A stretch of DNA of 64,000 bases from Stegostoma tigrinum (Eukaryota), in contig NC_081362.1 of the NCBI RefSeq assembly GCF_030684315.1, forward strand, positions 16,734,589 to 16,798,588, read 5' to 3'. The number at the start of each line of letters is the position of its first letter. The first letter of the stretch is position 1. A model generated the notes under the pieces. It saw only the letters and a list, made by a program, of their open reading frames with translations, did no database searches and was not told the DNA's origin. A program made the position numbers and the translations under genes. This document shows positions 8,691 to 61,262 of this stretch, in pieces.

Positions 8691-9049
8691 TTTTCAGATA
8701 GTCACATTAGTAACTATCACCAACCAATGAAGTTATGTTTATGTGTGAAGTCACTCGTCTGTTCTGGGTCCCTGATTCTGGCCTTCAATTTATCCTCTTA
8801 AAAAAAGTTTAAATTATGAGCCAAAGAAAGTACTTATTCCCCTCTGCTCCAGCTTCCCACACTGCCTCCAAATTCCCTGAACTATACACTCACTCAGTCT
8901 ATGTCCCTCTCTGGATGCGACCTCTCCTCCCTGACTGTGCCAAGTTTACTGAGCATATCCACAGTATTTAAGCTGGAGGTTTAAACTTCTGATCACGGGC
9001 ATTATCCTGACCAAACTGCTCCCTGACTCCCAACAACAGTTGAATAAGA

Positions 9050-9403
9050 AATAATGGGAGCTGCAGATGCTGGAGAATCCAAGATAACAAAGTGTGGGGC
9101 TGGATGAACACAGCAGGTCAAGCAGCATCTTAGGAGCACAAAAGCTGACGTTTCGGCCAGGACCAAACAGACCTGGGCTGTTTCTCTGATATACCTACAC
9201 TCACCTTTACTGGCTCCATCCCTGCCTCTTCGACATGCCTGTCTCCACCTGTCTTCTCCTCTATCCATCTTCTATCCACCTCCCCCTATTTATTTCAGAA
9301 CCCCCTTCCCTCCCCCCATTTCTGAAGACGGGTCTAGGCCTGAAACGTTAGCCTTCCTGCTCCTCGGCCTGCTGTGTTCATCCAGCTCCACACCTTGTTA
9401 TCT
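9050..9403. mobile_element. Penelope 3' fragment in fold-back arrangement with hammerhead motif at 9322-9349 (+)
   Basis: 9050-9160 is the reverse complement of the element tail; plus arm has CTGAAGA-cgggtctaggcct-GAAACGTT and ends at gttatctc. Confidence 0.85.
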
Positions 9404-24002: not shown

Positions 24003-24622
24003 GTAAGTTGAATCACACTGCCTGTATCTAGGGTATCATTTACTTACGCTGTTTTTAACCGCATGTTTACCCCAGTTTCCACTGCTAACTCTGTGTTGGC
24101 ATGAAACATTCTTTATGTCAGTTTATGGACCTGCTTTCCACTGGTGGCACACATTCCTTGTTCTGGCGACACGTAGCCTCATTGTATGGGATTTTCTGTC
24201 TACTGCAACATCTTGCAATTCCAACTATGGGAATAACTTCCCATTTTTAAGTAAATGAAATCAATATTAGATGTTTAGTCAAACATTTCCAAAACAAATT
24301 GGAATGTTAAAACTGCCCCTGTCCTGTGTACCAGAAAAGGACAAAGAAATAGTGATAAATTAATTTATTAATTAATTCAGTGACAAAGAATTGATTCAGT
24401 GAATTTCTTGTGTAATAACTGTAAATAGATCTTGAGGTACTTATTGCTTAACTTTAATGGGGACATTAAATTATTGGGTTAATGTCAGCATTAAAGTTAT
24501 GCTCATTAAGAAAAATGTTGAATCACGCAGGTTGAAATAATGAGAATTTGTATTAAGTTTGATTTCTAATTTTCTTGCAAGTTATGTTTTGCGAAACTTG
24601 CTTCTGAAACAAACCATGAATT

Positions 24623-24650
24623 CTGATGAAGGGTCTAGGCCCGAAACGTC
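24623..24650 (+). ncRNA. Minimal type I hammerhead ribozyme motif
   Basis: CUGAUGA-A-GGGU(CUAG)GCCC-GAAAC-GUC; conserved core intact, palindromic ACGU in place of stem III; activity untested. Confidence 0.75.
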
Positions 24651-24713
24651 AGCTTTTGTGCTCCTGAGATGCTGCTTGGCCTGCTGTGTTCATCCAGCCT
24701 CACATTTTATTAT
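24623..24713 (+). mobile_element. 91-bp Penelope 3'-end insertion consisting of hammerhead core plus tail, with 9-bp TSD
   Basis: Appears identical to 50006-50096; flanked by ccatgaatt at 24614-24622 and 24714-24722. Confidence 0.92.
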
Positions 24714-24771
24714 CCATGAATTATATTTCTTGTCTGTCATTTAAAACAGTCTCCAAATTCTCTGCCTTTAG

Positions 24772-28945: not shown

Positions 28946-29572
28946 CTGTTCATTTTGATTATTTAGGAAGATTAATATAGCTGATTTTCTAAAAATGCAG
29001 GAACAAATGGAACAACATTCTATTTAGGAGAACTAAAACAAAAAAAAATTGGACAAGCCTGCTTCAGGGAATACTGGCAAGTCTGCTGTAGAGTAGTAAA
29101 GCATAAAATAGGAAAAGCATGTATATCTGTGAAATCAAGGAAAGCATAGGAGAGTGTTCCCTCTCTCCAAGTACAGATATTCCCCAGAGAATTTGCCGAA
29201 ATAAAGCAAGGATACTTAAATGTTTTGAGAGAAGTAGCATTTGTATTTTATAGTATAAAGATCAGTATTATACAAAAAACAATAATGATGAACTCACAAC
29301 TAAAGTGTTCACTACATGTCATCTGGTTTAATTTTTAGACAATTCTGAAATTAATCTCCCAACTCCAGTTAATGTGGAAAGAGATTGGCTCTTTTTTGAA
29401 ATGTCTCGACAGCACATTTTCTATTTGTTCTTCATTCAGTAGCTGTGGTCCCTGCAGCAGTACAGGTTGTGATTCATGTAACTGCATGAATGTCCACACC
29501 TCTCAATTACCTCTTGATCAGATAATGAATATTGCTCCAATGCTTTATGCCAGTTTCAAAACTTTCAGTTTA

Positions 29573-30755
29573 CAGGTTCCAACCACCACCTCTTTACCGT
29601 GGATGTGCAATCCCTTTACACGTCCATTCCCCACCAGGAGGGTCTTTGGGCTATCCCTTTCTTCCTGGAGCAAAGACCTGAACCGTCCCCACCCACCATC
29701 ACCTTCCTCCACTTGGCCAAGCTCGTCCGCACTGTCAACAACTTCTCTTTTAATGCCCCTCAATTTCTGAGGGGTGGCCTTGGGCCCCGGTTATGCCTGT
29801 ATCTTCATGGGGTACGTGGAACATTCCTTGTCCCAGTCCTATTCCAGCCCCCACCCACAATTCTTTCTTTGATATATCGATGCTATCATTGGCGCTGCTT
29901 CCCTGTCTCATCCGGAATTGGAAAAATTCATCGAATACTCCTCCAATTTCCACCCTGCCCTCACTTTCACCTGGTCTATCTCTGACTCCTCCCTTCCCTT
30001 CCTCAACATCTCTGTGACACTCTGGTCCACTCTTCCACCACCCTCAACATCTCCCCACATCCCCACAGCACCTTCCTCTGCAACCAGCGACCATGCAACA
30101 CCTGCCTATTTACCCGCACTTCCCAGAATCTAGTCTGCTGCATTCACTGCTCACAATGTAGTCTCCACAACATTGGGGGAACTACGCTTAGACTGTGTAA
30201 CCACTTCACAGAACATCTATGTTCTGCTGACAAAAAAGACCCTGAACTACCTGTTGCCTGCCACTTTAACACACCACCCTGTTCCCTGGACAACATCTCT
30301 GTCTCTGGCTTACTGTAGTGTTTCAGCAAGCTGGAAGAACAGCACCCATTTTCTGGGGACCCAGCAGCCCTCCAGACTCAATATCGACTTCAATAATCTT
30401 AGGGCCTAAACTCTCCCATCCCAGCCCCCTACCACACATGCCAGGTCTTGTTATCACTTAGCCTGCCACTACACACTACTTATTGTTAGTCTCTAACAGT
30501 CGCCATTAACAACTATTCCCAGCCAGATCGTTATCAACTCCTTTGTCTATCCAACTGCTCTTCTCTCTCTTCAGGCTCTATCCAATAATTTACTCCCTAC
30601 CCCATCCCCCTCCCTGTTTTCTGCATATAAACCAATGTTTTCCCAGCTACCATCAGTTCTGAAGAAGGAGACCAGACACGAAATGCTAACTCTGAATTCT
30701 TCTTCACAGGTGCTGCCAGACCTGCTGAGCTGTTCCAGCAACTTCTGTTTTTGTT
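29573..30755 (+). mobile_element. Degraded Penelope-like element: RT, GIY-YIG and 3' end with decayed hammerhead (~30659)
   Basis: DVQSLYTSIPHQEGL (RT motif A), NNFSFN, NFHPALTFTWSIS...LPFL; GIY-YIG remnant at 30130-30409. Confidence 0.9.
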
Positions 30756-31202
30756 GTTGTTGTTACTGTTAATGAATATTGTATTATGTGCACATATGTG
30801 CTTTGTTTTGGTCATTTGCTAGTGGATTTGAGAACAAATGTTAGTAATGTGAGTTAAAGTTTTCAAGACTATTTGTCTCATCTTGCTGTTTCCTATTAGA
30901 ACTGGGAGACCCACTTACAGAGCAGTTGGACTGTTTACTCCACAAAAGTCTTCATGTAAAACTGGAATGTATATGATTATTGAGCATTTCCAGAACTTAT
31001 TGTGTACCAAATGCACATTTTAATGGAGGGAAAATACAAGAATGGTTCATTTTGTATACTTATATTCAAGTTTTATAATGATGTGTGGAAAGATCGATTT
31101 GAGCAAGTGATATGATATTGCTTAGAATTTTCAAATAAGCAAAAAGCCAAATATTATCGCGATCATATTGAGTGTATATATATTTTTCTTTGTTTTCCAC
31201 AG

Positions 31203-31309
31203 CGGGCATTCAAAGCTGCATAAAGGACAGATTTTGTTGAACTCTGATCTGGAGCTAGATGAATCTATTTTGGAGAAATTTGCATTTTCAAATGCACTTT
31301 CCCTGTCAG
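31203..31309 (+). CDS. RMND1: RMND1 coding exon: [35 protein letters not shown]
   Basis: cacag|C...TCAG|gtgag, 107 nt; [11 protein letters not shown] motif; lies inside track ORF 31168..31425. Confidence 0.97.
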
Positions 31310-31952: not shown

Positions 31953-32687
31953 TTTCTGTTCTGTTCAAATGCAGAATTCACCAATTTACCAGGCTTCTAG
32001 GTCCAGGTTGATAGAAAACATGGACCAGGCTTCTGTACTAACAAGAATTACTATGTATTACAAGTAACTAGAGCCTAGCTGTAGGTAAACAGTTACGGAT
32101 CATCGGTGTGTAACTCTACTAAATAAAATTCCAATCCCCTTAAAAAGTCCACTTAAAACATTTTGGACAAGGGTAAAAACAAATGAGAATATTATCCATG
32201 GAGAGAAAATTGGGAAAGCATTTCAGTAGTCTTTGTTCACAGGATCTTTTGAATTGATTCTTGGACTGATCAGAAGATTGCTTTTTTTTGGCTTTAGTTT
32301 TCCAGGTGCCCCTGCTGGTTTGCAAGATATACAGGGTGGCTGGTTCACTGATTAAAGGTCTCTGATTTAGCGACTGAATGGGTTTTCATCAGGCTTGAAG
32401 TGGCTTGTTGCAGAGAACAGAGTCCATGGGCTACTGGAGACCTGATGGCTCTGCTATATCTTGTCCACAGCCCCAAACTATTCAGGTACCTGTCAATCAA
32501 TCACAAAACTGACAGGCAAAAAATGTTTGTCAATGGTAACTGGCCATTAATTGTGAAATAGTTTGCTACTTGTTGCCAACCAATGCTCCATTTGTACACG
32601 ATCCTTCGGCTCCAATACGCCAGCAATCTTGTCCCACTACTGCTTAAACCAACAGTTGTGTACATGGTCACATTTTGCACATGTACG

Positions 32688-33433
32688 GCCTCCCTCCCCA
32701 GAATCCAAGGGCCCAAACATACCTTCCAGGTGAAGCAACACTTCACCTGTACTTCCAAGAATCTATTCTACTGCATTCGCTGCTCACAATGTGGTCTCCT
32801 CTACATTGGGGAAATGAAGCGTGGACTTGGCGACCGATTCACAGAACATCTATGTTCTGTTCTCAAAAAAGACCCTGAACTACCTGTTGCCTGCCACTTC
32901 AGTGCACTACCTCTGGCCAACATCTCTGTCTCCGGCTTGCTGCAGTGTTCCAGTGAAACCCAAGCTGGAGGAACAAAACCTCGTTTTCCGCTTGGGGACC
33001 CTACAGCCCTCCGGACTCAATACTGAATTCAATAATTTTAGGCCATAAATTCTCCCATGACCCAGCCCCCCATCCCAAACACCAGGCCTTGTTACCACAT
33101 AGCCTGCCACTACACACCCCCTGTTGTTAGTCACTTACAGCCCCCTTTAACAACTACTCACCCTCCCAGCCTGATCGTTAGCAACTGCTTTGTCTGTCCA
33201 ACCATCTTTCTCTCTCTTTGGGCTCTATCCTATCGTTTACTCCCACCCCAGCCACCTCCCTATTTTCTGCATATAAACTAACGTTTTCCCAGCCACCATC
33301 AGTTCTGAGGAAGGGTCACCAGACCCAAAACGTTAACTTTGTTTTCTCCTCCACTGATGCTGCCAGACCTGCTGAGCTTTTCCAGCAACTTTGTTTCCTG
33401 ATTTACAGCATCCGCAGTTCTTTTGGTTTTTAA
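32688..33433 (+). mobile_element. 5'-truncated Penelope-like element (GIY-YIG plus 3' end); hammerhead at 33305-33334 with GAAA>AAAA change
   Basis: NLFYCIRCSQCGLLYIGEMKRGLGDRFTEH in track ORF 32583..33026. Confidence 0.92.
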
Positions 33434-36366: not shown

Positions 36367-36515
36367 GATTATTATAACTTTGTCTTTTTCTCTGCATATT
36401 CTCTTTTCCTATATAAATAATAGTACCAAAATGTTTTGTGAGTATTAACCTAAGAGTTCAGCACCTCATACAGCACTAATCCGCCTGATGTTTTCCGAAA
36501 TTTGTTCTCTTTCAG

Positions 36516-36636
36516 ACATCGTATAAATTTGAGTTCCGATCTCCTGATGACCCCAGATTTTTACTGGGACAGAGAAAACCTGGAACAGCTCTATGACAAA
36601 ACTTGTCAATTTCTGAATATTAACCGACGTGTAAAG
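36516..36636 (+). CDS. RMND1: RMND1 coding exon: [40 protein letters not shown]
   Basis: ttcag|A...AAG|gtatg, 121 nt; [12 protein letters not shown] motif. Confidence 0.98.
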
Positions 36637-47119: not shown

Positions 47120-47236
47120 GTGATTAATGAAAAGTTACAACATTGTACTGAACTAACAGACTTGATGAGAAACCATCTAAGTGAGAAACATGGACTACGT
47201 CTTGAGTGGATGATCGTGATCCTCATTTCTATTGAA
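47120..47236 (+). CDS. RMND1: RMND1 coding exon: [39 protein letters not shown]
   Basis: tgtag|GTG...GAA|gtagg, 117 nt; LEWMIVILI hydrophobic segment. Confidence 0.98.
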
Positions 47237-48026
47237 GTAGGTCATTCAGCTGCTAAGACCAATTTTGTTATCTCATTTTTCAGGGTTGTCAATTCAAGGT
47301 TGTCAAAATAACCTAAAGCTAACTATTGTTACAGATCCTGTATAAAACGTTTACAATTTCTGTTTGTCGCACTTATTAGGTGAGGCTTATTGGTGGAGTA
47401 GACAACTTTCAACCTTGTGTACCTACGTGGCACCATGCATCACTATGTTGAGTGTAGGGTGAGCCATACAGCGCTCTCTTCGCTCCAGCCTTTCAGTGAG
47501 CCTTTGCACTAAACTGAAGAGTATTCTCTGATGCACCAGTGTGAAATTTTCTCTTTCCCACACCAGCTGTCCTCCACGCCTCGCCAAGAAACAACCTCAG
47601 TGGTGCCAAATTCTTAGCAGACCCACGAATAGTTTGAGGTGGGTCAAACCCATTTCACTCAATCCCTCAGAGTCAAATGTGACTCCCATTACAAGATTCA
47701 GCATTTTAATAGCCAGTAGTGAGAGGAAATTTTCATTCTATCAGTCTAGGCTAAATTGTAAACCTGGTTAAGAGTGTTAAACGTGTTCATTTCCATCTTA
47801 TCATAACTTTTACTGTACTTGTAGATTATTGTGTACCTACAAGTTAGCAATGATGATATCTTGTAATAAAACAGATATCTGCCCTTTGCATAAGTCAGTC
47901 ATTTAGATTTTGAAATGTTTTTATTTTAAAAATTGAAGCATAACCTGTGTGCCTCTGTCTAAGATAATAACATGTGAGGCTGGATGAACACAGCAGGCCC
48001 AGCAGCATCTCAGGAGCACAAAAGCT

Positions 48027-48054
48027 GACGTTTCGGGCCTAGACCCTTCATCAG
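48027..48054 (-). ncRNA. Minimal hammerhead ribozyme motif (antisense arm)
   Basis: gacgtttcgggcctagacccttcatcag is the reverse complement of CTGATGAAGGGTCTAGGCCCGAAACGTC. Confidence 0.75.
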
Positions 48055-48795
48055 AGAGGGGGATGGGGTGAGGGAACTGGAAGAAATAGGGAGGGAGGGG
48101 GAGGCGGACCGAAGATGGAGAGTAAAGAAGATAGGTGGAGAGAGTATAGGTGGGGAGGTAGGGAGGGGATAGGTCAGTCCAGGGAAGACGGACAGGTCAA
48201 GGAGGTGGGATGAGGCTAGTAGGTAGCTGGGGGTGCGGCTTGGGGTGGGAGGAAGGGATGGGTGAGAGGAAGAACCGGTTAGGGAGGCAGAGACAGGTTG
48301 GACTGGTTTTGGGATGCAGTGGGTGGAGGGGAAGAGCTGGGCTGGTTGTGTGGTGCAGTGGGGGGAGGGGACGAACTGGGCTGGTTTAGGGTTGCAGTTG
48401 GGGAAGGGGAGATTTTGAAACTGGTGAAGTCCACATTGATACCATTAGGCTGCAGGGTTCCCAGGCGGAATATGAGTTGCTGTTCCTGCAACCTTCGGGT
48501 GACATCATTGTGGCACTGCAGGAGGCCCATGATGGACATGTCATCTAAAGAATGGGAGGGGAAGTGGAAATGGTTTGCGACTGGGAGGTGCAGTTGTTTG
48601 TTGCGAACTGAGCGGAGGTGTTCTGCAAAGCGGTGTCCAAGCCTCCGCTTGGTTTCCCCAATGTAGAGGAAGCCACACCGGGTACAGTGGATGCAGTATA
48701 CCACATTGGCAGATGTGCAGGTGAACCTCTGCTTAATGTGGAATGTCATCTTGGGGCCTGGGATAGGGGTGAGGGAGGAGCTGTGGGGGCAAGTT

Positions 48796-48948
48796 GACAT
48801 CTGGGATGTCCAAGTTCTTCAAGGCGCACATCCCAGATGTCCAAGTTCTTCAAGCCGCACATCCCAGATGTCCAAGTTCTTCAAGACGCACATCCCAGAT
48901 GTCCAAGTTCTTCAAGGCGCACATCCCAGATGTCCAAGTTCTTCAAGG
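48796..48948 (+). repeat. Five tandem units, period 31 nt (cgcacatcccagatgtccaagttcttcaagN); first unit partial and partly inverted
   Basis: gatgtccaagttcttcaag starts at 48805, 48836, 48867, 48898 and 48929. Confidence 0.97.
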
Positions 48949-49799
48949 ACTGCAACTTTCCCCCCACAGTGATCGAGAACGCCCTTGACCGCGTCTCCCG
49001 TATTTCCCGCAACACATCCCTCACACCCCGCCCCTGCCACAACCGCCCAAAGAGGATCCCCCTCGTTCACACACACCACCCTACCAACCTCCGGATACGA
49101 CGCATCATCCTCCGACACTTTCGCCATTTACAATCCGACCCCACCACCCAAGACATTTTTCCATCCCCACCCTTGTCTGCTTTCCGGAGTGACCACTCTC
49201 TCCGTGACTCCCTTGTTCGCTCCACACTGCCCTCCAACCCCACCACACCCGGCACCTTCCCCTGCAACCGCAGGAAATGCTACACTTGCCCCCACACCTC
49301 CTCCCTCACCCCTATCCCAGGCCCCAAGATGACATTCCACATTAAGCAGAGGTTCACCTGCACATCTGCCAATGTGGTATACTGCATCCACTGTACCCGG
49401 TGTGGCTTCCTCTACATTGGGGAAACCAAGCGGAGGCTTGGACACCGCTTTGCAGAACACCTCCGCTCAGTTCGCAACAAACAACTGCACCTCCCAGTCG
49501 CAAACCATTTCCACTTCCCCTCCCATTCTTTAGATGACACGTCCATCATGGGCCTCCTGCAGTGCCACAATGATGCCACCCGAAGGTTGCAGGAACAGCA
49601 ACTCATATTCCGCCTGGGAACCCTGCAGCCTAATGGTATCAATGTGGACTTCACCAGTTTCAAAATCTCCCCTTTCCCTACTGCATCCCTAAACCAGCCC
49701 AGTTCGTCCCCTCCCCCCACTGCACCACACAACCAGCCCAGCTCTTCCTCCGCACCCACTGCATCCCAAAACCAGTCCAACCTGTCTCTGCCTCCCTAA
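48929..49799 (+). CDS. C-terminal part of the Penelope-like ORF (linker with Cys/His motif plus GIY-YIG endonuclease); RT missing
   Basis: PCNRRKCYTC...NVVYCIHCTRCGFLYIGETKRRLGHRFAEH...VANHF...EQQLIFRLGTLQPNGIN, open frame; the start at 48837 is an artefact of the tandem repeats. Confidence 0.9.
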
Positions 49800-50005
49800 C
49801 CGGTTCTTCCTCCCACCCCAAGCCGCACCCCCATCTACCTACTAACCTCATCCCACCTCCTTGACCTGTCCGTCTTCCCTGGACTGACCTATCCCCTCCC
49901 TACCTCCCCACCTATACTCTCTCCACCTATCTTCTTTACTCTCCATCTTCGGTCTGCCTCCCCCCTCTCCCTATTTATTCTAGTTCCCTCTCCCCATCCC
50001 CCTCT

Positions 50006-50033
50006 CTGATGAAGGGTCTAGGCCCGAAACGTC
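50006..50033 (+). ncRNA. Minimal hammerhead ribozyme motif (sense arm)
   Basis: CTGATGAAGGGTCTAGGCCCGAAACGTC in the 3' repeat of a GIY-YIG element, the established location for Penelope hammerheads. Confidence 0.78.
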
Positions 50034-51049
50034 AGCTTTTGTGCTCCTGAGATGCTGCTTGGCCTGCTGTGTTCATCCAGCCTCACATTTTATTATCTTG
50101 GAATTCTCCAGCATCTGCAGTTCCCATTATCTCTGCCTCTGTCTAAGTCTCTTTTACATCCTATGATCTGTATGTCCTTGCAAACTATATACTGCTCGTG
50201 AACAAAGCTTTTCACAGTACTTAGGTACATGTGACAATAAATAAATCAAAATCAAGTCAAATATGCAACACACCTACTAATATTTTTCCTCCTGCATGGA
50301 CCCCTGGGCAGTGGCTTCCAGAACCAGAAGTCATTGCAAGGAACAGTGTCAGTGCGCCAAGCAATGTGCATGGATCCTCAGAGTGTCAGTGTGGCCATAT
50401 AGCCTGGAGGAAACTCTGCCAATACATTGGTTTTGCAAAATATCTTTTTTGCATCATCGAATAATTGAATATCCTTTGTAATGGATGTGGCTTCAAAACC
50501 ATCAAAGGCGGAAAAAAATCAAATACTAAATATTTAATCCTAAGACAGGCAAATACTCATATCACCTTTCCTTCCTTGGGTAAAAAAACAAAATGATACT
50601 ATAGTCTGCAGGCATGAAGCTAAATCTACAGCTGAATCATAAATAATTTTATTAATCCCTCAAACACAGCTCTGAAGATGATGATTATGAATTTCAGCAT
50701 CATGCAATGCGACAGTTTATTTTTAAAAAAGTAACATAAGAGTAATTCCCAATCCCAGCAGGGAGCATTGCTGACAGGAAAGTGAATTGGAGGTTTCACT
50801 TTTATTTACATTGACCTTTCAGCATGGCTTCACTATTGGAAGTTGCTGATAATGTAGCTGAGTTATTTTAATTTCCGAAATGGATCCAATTATCAGCAAT
50901 CAGCAAAAAACAAGGACAAAATCTGTGACTTTTTACTGTACTCTGCAGAATTTTATGGGACAGGTAATTTTGGATTGAACTGCTAGTTTCAAATTCCAAG
51001 CATTCATGTTTTTCTACTAAATGATTGATAATGTCTTGATTGAGTTGTG

Positions 51050-51620
51050 AGTTTGGGGACAGGAGTAGGCCACTCAACCCCTCAAAACTACTCTGCTATT
51101 TAATACAATCATGACTGATTGAACGCTTCAATGCCTTTTACTCACCTCCTTCTTATACCTCTGCATATCATTGGTAATCAGAAATCTATCAATCTGTACC
51201 TTAAACACACTAAAATAAACTAAGCTTTCACAGTCCTGAGTGAGAGAAAATTCACAACTCCAGTAGTGAAAAAAATTCCCCTTCACGCAGACCTTTGTGG
51301 CAATCTCCTTAATTTTATATTAAGCCCCCTGGTTTTAGATACCCCAACCAGTGGAAACATCTTACCTGCATCTACACTGTCCAGCCTTTGAGGATTTTGT
51401 ACATTTCAACAAGATCACCTCTCATGCTTCTAATTCTAAAGGATACAGTTTACCCAATTCCACCTCATAGGACAGTCTTGCTATCCTGTAAAAAGTCTTT
51501 GTCGCACTCCCTCTATGGCAATAATATCTGTCCTGAAATAAGGAGACCAAAACTGCACAGAGTACTCCAGGTGCAGCCTAACTAAGCTCCTACACAATTA
51601 AAGCAAGACTTCACTGCTCT
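51050..51620 (-). mobile_element. CR1 3' fragment containing a Penelope mini insertion at 51622-51725
   Basis: ggagaccaaaactgcacagagtactccaggtg; insertion flanked by gacttcactgctc and gactacactactc. Confidence 0.7.
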
Positions 51621-52619
51621 TGGAGATGGTAAGAACTGCAGAAGCTGGAGTCAGAGTCAACAACCTGAAACGTCGACTTTCCTGCTCCTCTGATGTGCCA
51701 GACCTGCTGTGTTCCTACAGCTCCATTGACTACACTACTCCTCTACTCAAATCATTTAACAATGGCTAACATTTCATTGATGTTAAAATGATCAAAGGTC
51801 AAAATACTGATGATAATTACATTTGTTAACATTGTTATAGAAGGTATGTCAGTCTCCTGTAAATAGTAGTCAATGGTAGTATTACACATTATTGCAATTA
51901 TGCTTAATTGAATTGAGAAGCATTTGGACAGAAGTATATACTAGCTGCTAAATTTAACAGCAGGTTGATTAATAATATCAGTTTCAAAGCAAGTTATCCC
52001 AACATTCAAAATTGTAATTAGCAGCAATTGCTAAGTGGAAGACTAGAGTACTTTCAGTTAAGACTTAGTAGAAAACCTTATTTACTCCCAAGAACAATTC
52101 ACTTGTTTTCCTTTAAAAGTGAATGTGCAGTTTTTAGTATTCCTCACAATATAGATGCATCTAGTATCGCTATCATTGTTGAAATTAAAAGTAAGAATTG
52201 AGGACAAGATTTTCAAAGAAATTGTGGCTTTTAAGAATGCTTTGACTTCCAATTTTTAACATTTACTTGAGATTTTTAGTCCAAGCACAGGAATAGACTA
52301 TTTGGGCCATCAAACCTATGCCACAATTTTGTCAGGCATGCAGCTATTTTTCGAATTTTGGTTCACCACCCTTTCCCCACTGGGGAGTTAATATTCCCAA
52401 ATGCTTGGAGATAAAGGTACACGTTGTAGTTCTCATTTTCTGATCCTCACTTCCCTTAAATGATTTCTCACTGAGAGAGCAGGATTGCTCAGTTTTGTAT
52501 GCTTTCTTCTAAATTAAAAAAAACCCTTAAAACATCCAAACATGACCTTCTGGAGCACACAGTGAAGTAATGCAAATACTCAGAACCTGAAATGAGAACC
52601 AAAAGAAAGCCTGGAAAAA

Positions 52620-53065
52620 TTTCTGAGGAAGGGTCACTGGACTTGAAATGTTAACGCTGTTTTCTCCACAGATGTTGTCAAAACTAATTTCTCCAGCAAT
52701 TTCTGCTTTTATTTCTTTCACATCTCCAATTCTTTGCTTTATTTTACTGGAAAAACTAATATCTGTTAGCATCTGTAAAAGACAAAGAGTTACCATTTCA
52801 GGTTAATGGCCTTTCAGCAGAATTGAAGGAAGATAAAAATGGAAAAGTTTTTGAGCAGGTGGAAGAGGTGAAGAGTTAGATAGAACAAATTGAAGGTCTG
52901 TACTAGATTGGAGGCCAGGGAAGATTAAGTGACAAAATATTTCACGATGCAATAGCCAAAAAGAATGGGAATGGGTCTAGCAAAGAGCTTAATGATATGA
53001 AACTTAACTCTGCTTTTCTCCATAAGTGTTGCCTGACTAGAGTTTTTCTAGTCTTTTTTTGTTAA
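52620..53065. mobile_element. Cluster of decayed Penelope-type tails in alternating orientation
   Basis: ctgaggaagggtcactggacttgaaatgttaac (52623, +), a minus copy at 52745-52825 and a plus copy at ~53000. Confidence 0.65.
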
Positions 53066-53698
53066 CTTTTTTCCTCTGATTTGTAGAGCCACTGGCCTTT
53101 CTGGTCCCAGACACGGTTTTATTTTAAAAGGTCAGACTACGAATCTGTAGGGAAGAGGGAGTGTCTAGTATCAAAACACTGTGTTTCGAGGAAAGATTGG
53201 AAAAACTTTACAACAGTGACTAATGTGCCTCATAGGTGACAAAGCATTTTGGAAAGTGCGAAGTGTGTGTAAAGGTGAAAAAATGAATTTGTCTCAGCCT
53301 TGCAGGAAGCCAATAGAGATGGAACATGTAGAGCCATTTAATATATTTTAGAAGTAAAGACAAGAATTGAAAACATAATTCCAAACTAAATCCTGACTGT
53401 AGGATGAAAGCAGTAGGCAAAAGCTAGTGAACATACACATTTAACAGTAGCATCATGAAGGTTGTCACACAAAGGGTGAAGGATGCACAGAATAGTCTTC
53501 TGGATGGACTAATAGTGGCAGAAATCTTGGAATTATTTTAAAATTAGTTGAATCCTCTGTGGGGAAGGGAATAGGATCTTCCTGAATAATAAACTAAGTT
53601 CATCAAATGTGATGAGAATTTCACAAGCATGTGATTTATGGTATACAATATTTTGCAAGGACCAAGCAAGTTAATTAATCTTCTTATTTCTTACGCAG

Positions 53699-53731
53699 GT
53701 CTTGTTTGAACTTGCACGTGTTATTTTTTAA
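53699..53731 (+). CDS. RMND1: RMND1 last coding exon: VLFELARVIF*
   Basis: cgcag|GTC...TAA after a pyrimidine tract; resembles the recalled human C-terminus VMFELGRVFF*. Confidence 0.93.
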   Translation, partial: VLFELARVIF

Positions 53732-59350: not shown

Positions 59351-60287
59351 CAGTACTCTGCTGATTGGACTCAGACCTGAACTTGTCCAAAATTCTACTG
59401 CTCTAATCCAAGCTTATACTAAGATGTGTTTACATAATCTACATTCACTTCTGATTAGATAGGTGATTTCTAAAATCTTATCCTTGTTTTTAAAGTCTCT
59501 CCATGGCCCCTCCCCTTTCTGGCTTTGTAACCTTTCCCAGAAGTGAAACTCCACAAGATCTCTGTGCTCGTCCCATGTTGTCATGTTGTACATCCAAAAT
59601 TGTAATCGCTGTGCCATCAGTTATCAAAGCCACAGTTATTGGAATTTCCTCCGCAGGCCACTGCACCCTGCTCTTCTCCTTTAAGAAGTTATTTAAACTT
59701 TCTTTGACCGAGCTTTTTGTTGCTTGCCTTAATAGCTCCTCATGTGGCTTAGTGTCAGACTTGTCTGGTAATACTCCAGTGAGACACATTCTAACTTTTT
59801 ACTACATCAAAGATGCTTTATAAATGTACATTGGTACTTGAAAGGCATGTAATTCACAATGATGTCAAGCAGACATTTGTAAATAAAACCCACTCAAATT
59901 TGATCTATTCTGCCAGAGTCTTCAGCCAGTTTTCCCCACACTGCAGTTTTCTTCTTAAACTATTCATCTTGCTGCATTTGTCCTCTGTGTCTTCAGTGCT
60001 CATTGATAAGAATAGTTTGAGTAGATATTGAGAAACCCTTTCTACTAAAGGAAGATGCCAGCACAAGGGAACATGACGTTAAATTCAATACCAGGCTGTT
60101 CAGAAGAAAAGTTAGGAAACACGTGTTCGATCTTCTCTACAGAGGCAAGCGGGTAATTCATCCAGTTAAGTCCTGCATTGCAGCCATTTTGTGTCAGTGC
60201 TGGTATTTTATCAACATCAAATTTGTTCCCCATTGTATTCCAGTTCAATCGAAGTGGCAAAGCAGCAACAGGTCATCTCTCCAACCA

Positions 60288-61262
60288 ATGGGCCCCTGGT
60301 TTGTGATATACATAATGATCTGGAGGAAGGTATAAATGGTCTGATTAGCAAGTTTGCAGATGACACGAAGATTGGTGGAGTAGCAGATAGTAAAGAGGAC
60401 TGTCAGAGAATGCAACAGAATATAGATAGATTGGAGAGTTGGGCGGAGAAATGGCAGATGGAGTTCAACCCAGGCAAATGCGAGGTGGTGCATTTTGGAA
60501 GATCCAATTCAAGAGTGAACTATACGGTAAATGGAAAAGCTCTGGGGAAAATTGATGCACAGAGAGATCTGGGTGTTCAGGTCCATTGTACCCAAAAGGT
60601 GGCAACGCAGGTCAATAAGGTGGTCAAGAAGGCATACGGCATGCTTTCCTTCATCGGACGGGGTACTGAGTACAAGAGTTGGCAGGTCATGTTACAGTTG
60701 CATAGGACTTTGGTTCGACTACATTTGGAGTACTGTGTACAGTTCTGGTCGCCACATTACCAAAAGGATGTGGATGCTTTGGAGAGGGTGCAGAGGAGGT
60801 TCACCAGGATGTTGCCTGGAATGGAGGGCACTAGCTATGAAGAGAGGTTGAGTAGATTAGGATTATTTACAGTAGAAAGACAGAGTTTGAGGGAGGACCT
60901 GAATGAGGTCTACAAAATCATGAGAGGTACAGACAGGGTGGATAGCAAGAAGGTTTTCCCAGAGTGGGAGGCTCAATTACTAGGGGTCACAATATCAAGG
61001 TGAGAGGGGAAAAGTTTAAGGGAGATATGTGTGGAAAGTTCTTTTCGCAGAGGGTGGTGGATGCCTGGAACGCGTTGCCAGCGGATGTAGTAGATGCGGG
61101 TATGATAGCATCATTTAAGATGCCTCGAGACAGATACATGAATGGGCAGGGAGCAGAGGGATACAGATCCTTGGAAAATAGGCAACAGGTTTAGATAGAG
61201 GATCCAGATTGGCGCAGACTTGGTGTGCAGAAGGGCCTGTTTCTGTACTGTAATTTTCTTTG
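60288..61262 (+). mobile_element. 5'-truncated, fairly young CR1 LINE (RT C-terminus plus 3' UTR)
   Basis: ISKFADDTKIGG, KWQMEFNPGKCEV, LEYCVQFWSPHYQKD in track ORF 60191..61003. Confidence 0.95.

Follow-up and report, generated by a model that had tools for sequence, protein, structure and literature searches.

A probable single Penelope-like insertion with inverted arms and a junction stutter in the last coding intron of RMND1 in Stegostoma tigrinum

We analysed a 64,000-nt stretch of the Stegostoma tigrinum genome (the window, to which all positions refer). The last coding intron of RMND1 holds a fold-back unit that very probably arose when a high-copy carpet-shark Penelope-like retrotransposon of Neptune/Nematis type inserted once, dead on arrival. 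Its layout is the typical published pattern of Penelope-like elements (PLEs) and is ordinary for this class. As one more copy of that pattern in a high-copy family the locus itself carries little weight, and it serves as a clean teaching example in which TSD, tail boundary and single source are all readable. At the junction between its arms lies a stutter that, from this one locus, suggests repeated re-copying during insertion, possibly in a telomerase-like manner.

Results

Layout of the insertion

RMND1 lies on the plus strand, with a DUF155 match (Pfam, E 6e-15) at 36505-36636. Exon 47120-47236, which has no Pfam match on its own, stops at a GT, and the terminal exon begins at 53699 after an AG and closes with a stop. 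We take these two exons to be the RMND1 C-terminus, partly by likeness to the vertebrate protein. The insertion had been placed inside the last RMND1 intron in a preliminary description of this DNA; the GT...AG borders and DUF155 on the plus strand bear this out for the last coding intron.

47237..53698, plus strand: host intron, the last coding intron of RMND1 (GT...AG, 6462 bp)
47950..47963, plus strand: left TSD copy, 14 bp, exact match to the right copy
47964..48794, minus strand: left arm, an inverted, tail-less, 5'-truncated copy of the element 3' part (alignment, contigs)
49284..50099, plus strand: right arm, with 4 arm-specific substitutions, a 17-bp deletion and a 1-bp deletion
50100..50133, plus strand: PLE tail, 34 nt, at the right end only
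50134..50147, plus strand: right TSD copy, 14 bp, exact match to the left copy

The 14-bp TSD (TGCCTCTGTCTAAG) is exact in both copies and surrounds the whole unit, as had been described; the chance of such a TSD is ~2e-5 over 50x50 candidate positions. Both arms lie within it, which upholds the view of a single insertion. The last three bases of the left TSD (AAG; 5/6 of the last 6) also fit the element at its tail-less boundary, and the target site is not a microsatellite. Among the five other aligned copies in the window, two have the tail and three end at the tail-less boundary.

The left copy contains the EN domain, a C/T-rich region and the pLTR with its hammerhead. Alignment confirms that the inverted arms (47961-48794 and 49284-50099; 47958-48794 with 49284-50102 by ungapped extension) are near-identical; along 816 bp of the right arm the gapped alignment counts 18 substitutions, of which 9 are transitions and 9 transversions. 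The single 18-bp indel reported earlier is actually two indels, one of 17 bp and one of 1 bp, and the arms differ at 20 places in total. The 17-bp deletion of the right arm is flanked by 7-nt direct repeats.

In two samples (runs X1 and X2), contigs of 2220 nt span the left junction and show 0 differences. Structures of this kind are known to trouble assemblers (PMC8557442), and none of the contigs listed bridges 48794/48795 or covers the whole unit. We nevertheless regard an assembly fold-back artefact as extremely improbable: the arms differ at those 20 places while the TSD is exact, the one-sided tail ends at the family boundary, the left junction recurs in contigs of two samples, and the stutter bin has ~5.5x the single-copy depth. 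A related-species contig (X11) fits the left flank to 47951, continues with 18 non-fitting letters and ends, so that the empty site was not recovered from it; related-species run X9 gave no cover at 47550-47799 or 47850-47899.

Identity of the element

48918..49799, plus strand: 5'-truncated ORF with the post-RT-core region, a CX4CxxC linker and GIY-YIG with CCHH
48026..48054, minus strand: minimal hammerhead core, antisense to RMND1
50006..50034, plus strand: pLTR hammerhead, minimal type I, in sense orientation in RMND1 RNA (criteria of PMC4209133)

The Penelope-like identity proposed earlier is borne out by the GIY-YIG with CCHH, the pLTR with its hammerhead core, the inverted copy, the tail and the TSD. 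In a protein search 38 of 848 candidates passed, the nearest being a Stegostoma protein at 92% identity and a Rhincodon protein at 86%. Because of the 5' truncation the ORF is without the RT core; in P0002 (86% identical), RVT_1 (E 9e-5) lies upstream of GIY-YIG. An open GIY-YIG frame does occur in each arm (179 aa stop-to-stop in the left arm, 333 aa in spacer plus right arm), with weak Pfam matches (E 4.9e-4 and 1.2e-3; 20.8 and 19.5 bits) below the 22.6-bit cut-off. The CxxC between the two GIY-YIG motifs and the two downstream His of the CCHH are invariant in 8/8 aligned sequences. At two sites where homologues are conserved (D in 63/72, S in 63/72) the ORF carries D-to-H and S-to-F substitutions, and the left arm carries both too; a second protein search (70/313 candidates, 56-83% identity) was used for such conserved residues only. 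Contig depth of the family exceeds that of the flank by five to six orders of magnitude.

The linker reads CNRRKCYTC in the right copy and has equivalents in P0002, P0003, P0005, P0014 and P0020. A CX2-5CxxC linker between RT and EN defines the Neptune/Nematis type (PMC8557442), and the CX4CxxC linker points to Neptune or Nematis, a motif-based assignment to the two clades jointly. The Penelope/Poseidon clade was rejected, its mark being the lack of the linker finger present here. A non-LTR retrozyme, built of tandem head-to-tail hammerhead units (10.64898/2026.07.22.740005), was likewise rejected: the hammerheads here are inverted, and the tandem units at 48797-48947 contain none. A first metagenome scan for family DNA gave 0 matches. 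The one match of a second scan, a lone 21-mer in an otherwise dissimilar contig of 61% G+C, was set aside as chance.

Hammerheads and the predicted RNA stem

The right hammerhead comprises CUGAUGA, an extra A, a 4-bp helix II, GAAA, a CG palindrome, GUC and a 2-bp helix I. The core letters are complete and the same in both arms, and the four Cervera features can be read from the sequence. To this extent each arm does carry an intact core, as had been claimed; however, the motif is minimal (2-bp helix I), without an Rfam match, and sense only on the right. Over the window Rfam gave 0 matches at gathering score, and in folding the core self-pairs as a plain hairpin in 4/5 pieces and in one further fold (z -0.2 to 1.0). 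A stand-alone active hammerhead would be expected to have stable helices I-III and to match a curated model, and neither is found here. Being antisense, the left hammerhead is no ribozyme in the RMND1 transcript.

Minimal hammerheads of PLEs are reported not to cleave when present as single motifs (PMC4209133) or when protein is absent (PMC11167929). By analogy, the lone hammerhead in RMND1 RNA probably does not cleave and the ribozyme would be silent. Given those two reports and the antisense left copy, the importance previously attached to sequestration of the ribozyme is not supported. The long dsRNA stem that had been envisaged in RMND1 pre-mRNA holds as a prediction only: of the 834 bases in the left arm, 803 find a partner in the right arm, with the sense hammerhead inside the stem. 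On this fold the ~800-bp stem is likely a passive, putative ADAR target. Our literature search on ADAR and inverted repeats in sharks, judged by title, found no paper on the subject. Should near-perfect stems of ~800 bp prove frequent in the introns of sharks, they would correspond there to the inverted Alus that serve as ADAR substrates.

Source and age of the arms

The arms have two letters in common, G at 48635 and A at 48562, that 97.7% and 97.3% of the X1 depth does not share (rows listed); the left-private allele at 48502 is as rare (97.7%). Of the arm rows 14 are listed beside 63 unlisted, and some differences are uncounted. Since the arms share two rare family alleles they have one source, and their divergence can therefore date the event, roughly. 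It stands at 2.2%, against 5.0% to the flank of the related species, so that an insertion called young before still goes back about half as far as the split between the two species. The proposal that arm divergence dates the event is thus allowed by the two shared alleles and weakened by the uneven spread of differences.

That spread is 3/384 bp in the coding part against 13/338 bp in the C/T-rich part (P about 0.008, post hoc). A 242-nt run next to the spacer is identical between the arms (P 0.016, post hoc), and the inner 256 bp has 1 difference where 5.6 are expected (P 0.011). Such unevenness is not predicted by neutral decay alone. All three coding differences alter a residue. Ten differences are left-specific, four plus the two deletions are right-specific and four are unpolarised, a polarisation that leans on one predicted protein, P0001, from which each arm departs in its own ways. 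ADAR editing of the template was rejected as their origin, with A/G at only 1/18.

Two rival readings bear on the clock. The arms might have been copied from separate source RNAs, or from a tandem source whose two units had already diverged, and their divergence would then not be a clock; the avoidance of the coding part and the 7-13% of depth that lacks the majority letter at 48083 fit this. We think it quite unlikely, however: among the rows listed, two alleles of private-level rarity are common to both arms, every coding difference changes a residue, and each arm shows its own departures from P0001. The 48083 figure is moreover too high, since that cluster is matched by few contigs (its depth is about 1e6, that of nearby positions 5e6). 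Alternatively, the insertion may be older than 2.2% implies, with gene conversion of the inner arms having spread two later mutations and erased differences. Both rare shared alleles do sit in the 242-nt identical block, and the inner 256 bp is depleted of differences. A rare, already decayed source copy would account for the shared alleles as well, though, the C/T-rich part may just have a higher mutation rate, and shared rare alleles may exist in the outer arms among the rows unlisted; we judge conversion unlikely. One source for both arms remains our reading.

Central junction

The preliminary description did not mention the central joint, the 34-nt tail or the make-up of the spacer. Its spacer length of ~490 bp was right (489 bp), but this is not neutral DNA: it consists of element ORF, with a 31-bp stutter (48797-48947) followed by the continuous reading frame.

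48795..48809, minus strand: joint base and 14-nt snap-back, the reverse complement of the adjoining repeat unit, at the head-to-head junction
48810..48947, plus strand: stutter, the remainder of a partial unit and then four identical 30-nt ORF pieces

One variable base precedes each 30-nt piece (G 48824, C 48855, A 48886, G 48917), and the last piece continues into the ORF. The piece is present once in P0001 and P0002. Stutter depth is 5.4-5.5x flank in X1 and X2, and 0 in X9 and X11. The 120 body bases show 0 changes whereas the four joints hold three different bases, a pattern of P ~8e-4 if it arose by later mutation. Other contigs of the family also show backward joints with one extra letter, namely C for 48056 to 48017 and for 48058 to 48024, and T for 48606 to 48505. 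piRNAs bear a 5' U or an A at base 10; the 30-nt piece has neither, and a piRNA template was rejected. Slippage at the CGCA microhomology was also rejected, since the period would be 33 bp and is 31.

Discussion

We infer the following course of insertion. The protein of an intact element, in trans or cis, would have cut both strands 14 bp apart. One DNA end would then have primed reverse transcription at the tail end of the RNA, and synthesis would have halted at 48918 after 1216 nt. There the polymerase would have added a single base, moved back and copied the same 30 nt again, four further times in all, before snapping back for 14 nt. The second arm would have come from the same source, most likely with the other DNA end priming 34 nt further in, at a second start site, where 3-5 paired bases would have helped; this run covered 831 nt. 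Host repair would have joined the two heads, and both arms would have decayed neutrally afterwards. A PLE protein is reported to cut and extend both strands and to begin at two RNA sites bounding the tail (PMC11167929).

The left arm could instead have been made by fold-back copying of the first cDNA, by snap-back or self-priming, with its tail-less end cut by the endonuclease where the tail begins; the end product here would be identical to that of two-ended priming. Self-priming is the reading given in PMC3846280, EN-mediated resolution has been proposed for the tail (PMC8557442), R2 cDNA snaps back in human cells (PMC11371274), and this route directly explains the shared rare alleles and has a 14-nt snap-back to point to. 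However, the re-entry point at 49284 offers one base of microhomology at most, whereas the left end pairs 3-5 target bases exactly at the family's tail-less boundary, as priming would have it. We see fold-back copying as plausible but doubtful, and keep to two-ended priming.

For the stutter, host repair (templated insertion of the polymerase theta type) or later slippage, rather than the element's reverse transcriptase, comes close to an even chance in our estimate without reaching it. Theta-mediated end joining is known to leave short stretches of templated synthesis, repeated and with snap-back, which fits what is seen, and the G and C joint bases are readable as templated from either neighbour. 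Later slippage fares worse because it would copy the joint base too, against the joint-only variation (P ~8e-4), and the sole nearby microhomology gives the wrong period. Re-copying by the reverse transcriptase may be taken further: the stutter could be a fossil of telomerase-like repeat addition in vivo, in which the Penelope enzyme, at the truncated 5' end, would have kept a fixed 30-nt RNA piece, added one untemplated base, reset and re-copied over five rounds, the family backward joints being the same act. We hold this to be an improbable conjecture. If it is true, the step linking PLEs to telomerase would be recorded naturally many times over in this huge family of sharks' elements. The behaviour of PLE reverse transcriptases at template ends has been called undefined in the literature, and the junction stutter offers a cheap genome-wide handle on it.

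Comparison with known elements

A typical PLE insertion has an inverted pLTR, a 31-bp tail at one end, an 8-10 bp TSD and palindromes at the inverted junction (PMC3846280), a scheme of the same layout being given in the legend of PMC8557442 Fig. 2. The unit resembles Pen2a_Av (PMC3846280; PMC8557442 Fig. 2) in its inverted 5'-truncated copy at the 5' end, whole-unit TSD, one-sided tail of 30-40 bp (34 here) and small palindrome at the inverted junction. Unlike Pen2a_Av, both copies here are truncated, without RT core or upstream direct pLTR; the arms are long (816 bp, EN included), the TSD is 14 rather than 8-10 bp and the junction has a 31-bp stutter. With Neptune and Nematis (PMC8557442) it shares the CX2-5CxxC linker before a CCHH GIY-YIG, the C-terminal EN and relatives with upstream RT; it differs in a target that is no microsatellite.

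PAc of Anolis (Poseidon clade; PMC11167929) likewise has two tail-bounding RT start sites, both strands cut and extended, and a hammerhead that overlaps an ATG. Its clade, however, is without the linker finger, and the excerpted text of that source describes neither fold-back formation nor junction repeats for PAc. R2 likewise makes untemplated additions and snaps back at the 5' junction, and it copies templates serially, but the jumps described in the corresponding excerpts (PMC2718515, PMC11371274) reach whole templates or other RNAs rather than re-copying one 30-nt terminal piece in series. The hammerheads match the minimal type-I PLE motifs of PMC4209133, where nearby opposite-strand pairs are already reported, in the full core, the extra base between 9 and 10.1, G10.1-C11.1 and the palindromic 15.2-16.2. 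They differ in a helix I of 2 bp (as in the D. virilis variant) against 4-5, a helix II of 4 bp against 6-8, and a same-strand partner no closer than 25 kb.

Structure and context of the insertion

The insertion in RMND1 is very likely real and single, a decayed Penelope-like element (PLE) of the published fold-back type. It comprises:

47950-47963 and 50134-50147: exact 14-bp direct repeats, the target site duplication (TSD)
47961-48794: left arm, inverted
48797-48947: 31-bp array at the joint of the two halves
48949-49283: continuous ORF
49284-50099: right arm
50100-50133: 34-nt tail, absent from the left arm

Ungapped extension recovers three abutting inverted blocks (47958-48794 against 49284-50102) that are 94-98% complementary and 489 bp apart, bearing out the near-identical arms and ~490-bp spacer of the preliminary description. 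The 14-bp TSD it placed round the whole unit is also confirmed, the chance of such a repeat at the insertion ends being ~2e-5. The single 18-bp indel it described between the arms is not: gapped alignment over 816 bp gives a 17-bp and a separate 1-bp indel, together with 18 substitutions (9 transitions and 9 transversions). The tail-less boundary is identical in three of the five other window copies aligned, and two of the five carry the tail.

The right copy codes for the region following the reverse transcriptase (RT) core, then a CX4CxxC linker and a GIY-YIG domain with CCHH. Among 848 candidate proteins, 38 passed, the nearest belonging to Stegostoma (92%), Rhincodon (86%) and Chiloscyllium (61%), which points to a probable carpet shark host. 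P0002, a close relative at 86% identity, matches both RT and GIY-YIG. Sections of PMC8557442 describe the linker as a mark of Neptune and Nematis, absent from Penelope and Poseidon. By its linker the element would be of either the Neptune or the Nematis type.

RMND1 lies on the + strand. Exons 36505-36636 and 31195-31308 match DUF155 (E 6e-15 and 0.03), and exon 47120-47236, queried by itself, gave no domain match. This last exon ends at a GT; the exon that follows the AG at 53698 is made up of ten codons and a stop. In part from what is known of the vertebrate protein, we take the two to be the RMND1 C-terminus. The proposed location in the last RMND1 intron is safely worded as the last coding intron, since the 3′ UTR may hold further introns. 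The right flank (50148-50260, AATAAA at 50236) is presumably similar to 3′ ends of CR1/L2-type LINEs in sharks. An older repeat may have received the insertion, a possible reason for the contig of the related species, organism B, ending there. Further along, a 277-aa open frame at 60170-61003 (+) with a weak RT match (RVT_1 E 2e-5) is probably a LINE fragment.

Contig evidence

Contig sets from 4 of 24 runs were compared with the left half only (47350-48845): X1 and X2, two samples of organism A from one study, one of which may be the assembly source, and X9 and X11 from organism B. In X1 and X2 a 2220-nt contig that starts in the flank crosses the left junction and covers the first 23 bases of the arm, up to 47986, without differences. 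Depth in bin 48800-48845 is 53 and 128 against 9.7 and 23.5 in the flank, a ~5.5-fold excess that agrees with a single locus holding about five repeat units; in organism B it is 0. No contig bridging 48794/48795 was among the matches listed for this interval. Arm depth in organism A reaches 3e6-3e7, which is no copy number, but this is a very large family. Organism B contigs did not yield the empty site: one X11 contig matches the left flank up to 47951, differing at 30 letters over 602 bp, and ends after 18 non-fitting letters. In X11, organism B also has a 22-bp insertion at 47820 in the left flank, resembling a local duplication.

Origin and age of the arms

The two arms share a G at 48635 and an A at 48562, in left-arm coordinates, positions at which another letter accounts for 97.7% and 97.3% of X1 depth. 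These alleles change D to H and S to F at sites where 63/72 homologues (60-95% identity) have D and 63/72 have S. Minority letters at 48276, 48447, 48464 and 48636 are likewise common to both arms, and a left-private change at 48502 is as rare as the shared alleles (other letter in 97.7% of X1 depth). This comparison covers the 14 arm matches listed, beside 63 others, and some differences are uncounted. With P0001, a predicted protein related to the ORF, and the window copies as references, the left arm has 10 differences of its own and the right arm 4 substitutions plus both deletions, leaving 4 unpolarised. Shared rare alleles with differences on both sides indicate that the arms were alike, or nearly so, at birth and decayed later. 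The rare alleles common to both arms speak against an origin from two templates.

The differences are nevertheless uneven, with 3 in 384 coding bases against 13 in 338 C/T-rich bases (P ~0.008, post hoc) and an identical run of 242 nt (P 0.016, post hoc). The unevenness counts against a simple clock, and could stem from faster mutation of the C/T-rich part, from conversion between the inner arms or from two related templates. The view that arm divergence dates the event thus gains from the shared alleles and loses from this unevenness.

Arm divergence is 2.2% (95% interval 1.3-3.5%) against 5.0% in the flank between organisms A and B (Fisher p 0.005), so the insertion is probably later than their split, very roughly at 0.4 of its depth. 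With the mutation rate given for the epaulette shark in PMC10587355, 7e-10 per base and generation (interval 1.4-14.1e-10), 1.1% per arm corresponds to about 16 million generations, a loose figure. The insertion, described as young, is so only in relative terms.

The array at the joint

The spacer is not neutral sequence, and its array, which the preliminary description lacks, consists of four identical 30-nt ORF pieces, each preceded by one differing base (G, C, A, G). The head of a partial fifth unit (48796-48809) is the reverse complement of a unit, and a further single base links it with the left arm; relatives carry the piece once. Variation at the joints only, with 0 changes in 120 body bases, has P ~8e-4 under later mutation, which makes a separate round of synthesis for each unit probable. 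In the cDNA direction, synthesis would have copied to a stop, added one base and jumped back 30 nt, repeating the cycle before snapping back and joining the heads. Among 12 joints listed, beside 396 others, are backward joints with one letter between in other family contigs: 48056->48017 (C) and 48058->48024 (C) in X2, and 48606->48505 (T) in both X1 and X2. Host polymerase theta can leave a similar trace and could have left this one; the boldest reading, in which the enzyme of the element itself built the array by telomerase-like repeat addition, seems to us unlikely. We found no description of such junction arrays in PLEs in the papers searched; subscription papers and supplements may hold examples. 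In each of X1 and X2 one contig of single-copy depth is 3 bases short at an array joint (48826); it may stand for a second locus where a similar array occurs, or for a unit absent from the assembly.

Hammerheads and the predicted RNA stem

Both arms have the full hammerhead core and the features listed for minimal PLE hammerheads in part of PMC4209133, except that helix I is 2 bp. Rfam gave no match for them, and folding usually self-pairs the core, no better than in shuffles; the intact core claimed for each arm stands as to completeness, qualified by the short helix and the Rfam result. Only the right hammerhead is in sense orientation in RMND1 RNA, and the nearest intact same-strand family core lies 25 kb upstream. 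The long double-stranded stem proposed for RMND1 pre-mRNA is supported by the predicted fold of 47950-50147, in which 803/834 bases of the left arm pair with the right arm. The longest perfect helix in it measures 242 bp, and the hammerhead lies wholly inside the stem. By analogy with inverted Alus, a precedent for ADAR editing, editing of this predicted stem is plausible. Sequestration of the sense ribozyme, although predicted, is probably moot, since a single minimal motif does not cleave according to parts of PMC4209133, which already note opposite-strand pairs, and portions of PMC11167929 describe cleavage only with protein and as not needed for insertion.

Other copies in the window are:

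24622-24714 (+): 93-bp copy of the young family, 97% identical, in an upstream RMND1 intron; starts exactly at the hammerhead 5′ edge, ends at the tail-less boundary, 7-8 bp TSD
9047-9156: reversed copy with tail
9239-9403: forward tail-less copy
29518-30750, 32562-33396, 30659, 36362 (-), 52623: relics of a sister family, Penelope-like and older

The commonest loose end listed in the family is 48055 (50005 in the right arm), also at the hammerhead 5′ edge (380 and 378 contigs in X1 and X2, 65 and 71 in X11 and X9). The predicted cleavage site is ~29 nt further downstream, and the short copies seem to begin not at the ribozyme cut but at some other RNA end or stop. The pair at 9047-9403 is an older, smaller head-to-head arrangement of the same kind as the RMND1 fold-back, with no TSD evident in the flanks inspected. 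The two long sister-family relics are 80% alike, and two sister-family hammerheads have a helix I of 3-4 bp, longer than in the young family.

Comparison with known elements

The locus does not fit the definition of a retrozyme in 10.64898/2026.07.22.740005. R2 is known to make untemplated additions, to jump between templates and to snap back (PMC2718515, PMC11371274), and the joint shares with it the extra bases, the serial copying and the snap-back. Portions of PMC11167929 describe a PLE protein that cuts and extends both strands, starting at two RNA sites bounding the tail. The typical PLE layout in sections of PMC3846280 and PMC8557442 is an inverted 5′-truncated copy with palindromes at the inverted junction, a 30-40 bp tail at one end and one TSD, and the RMND1 locus matches it in its inverted truncated copy, one-sided 34-nt tail and TSD.
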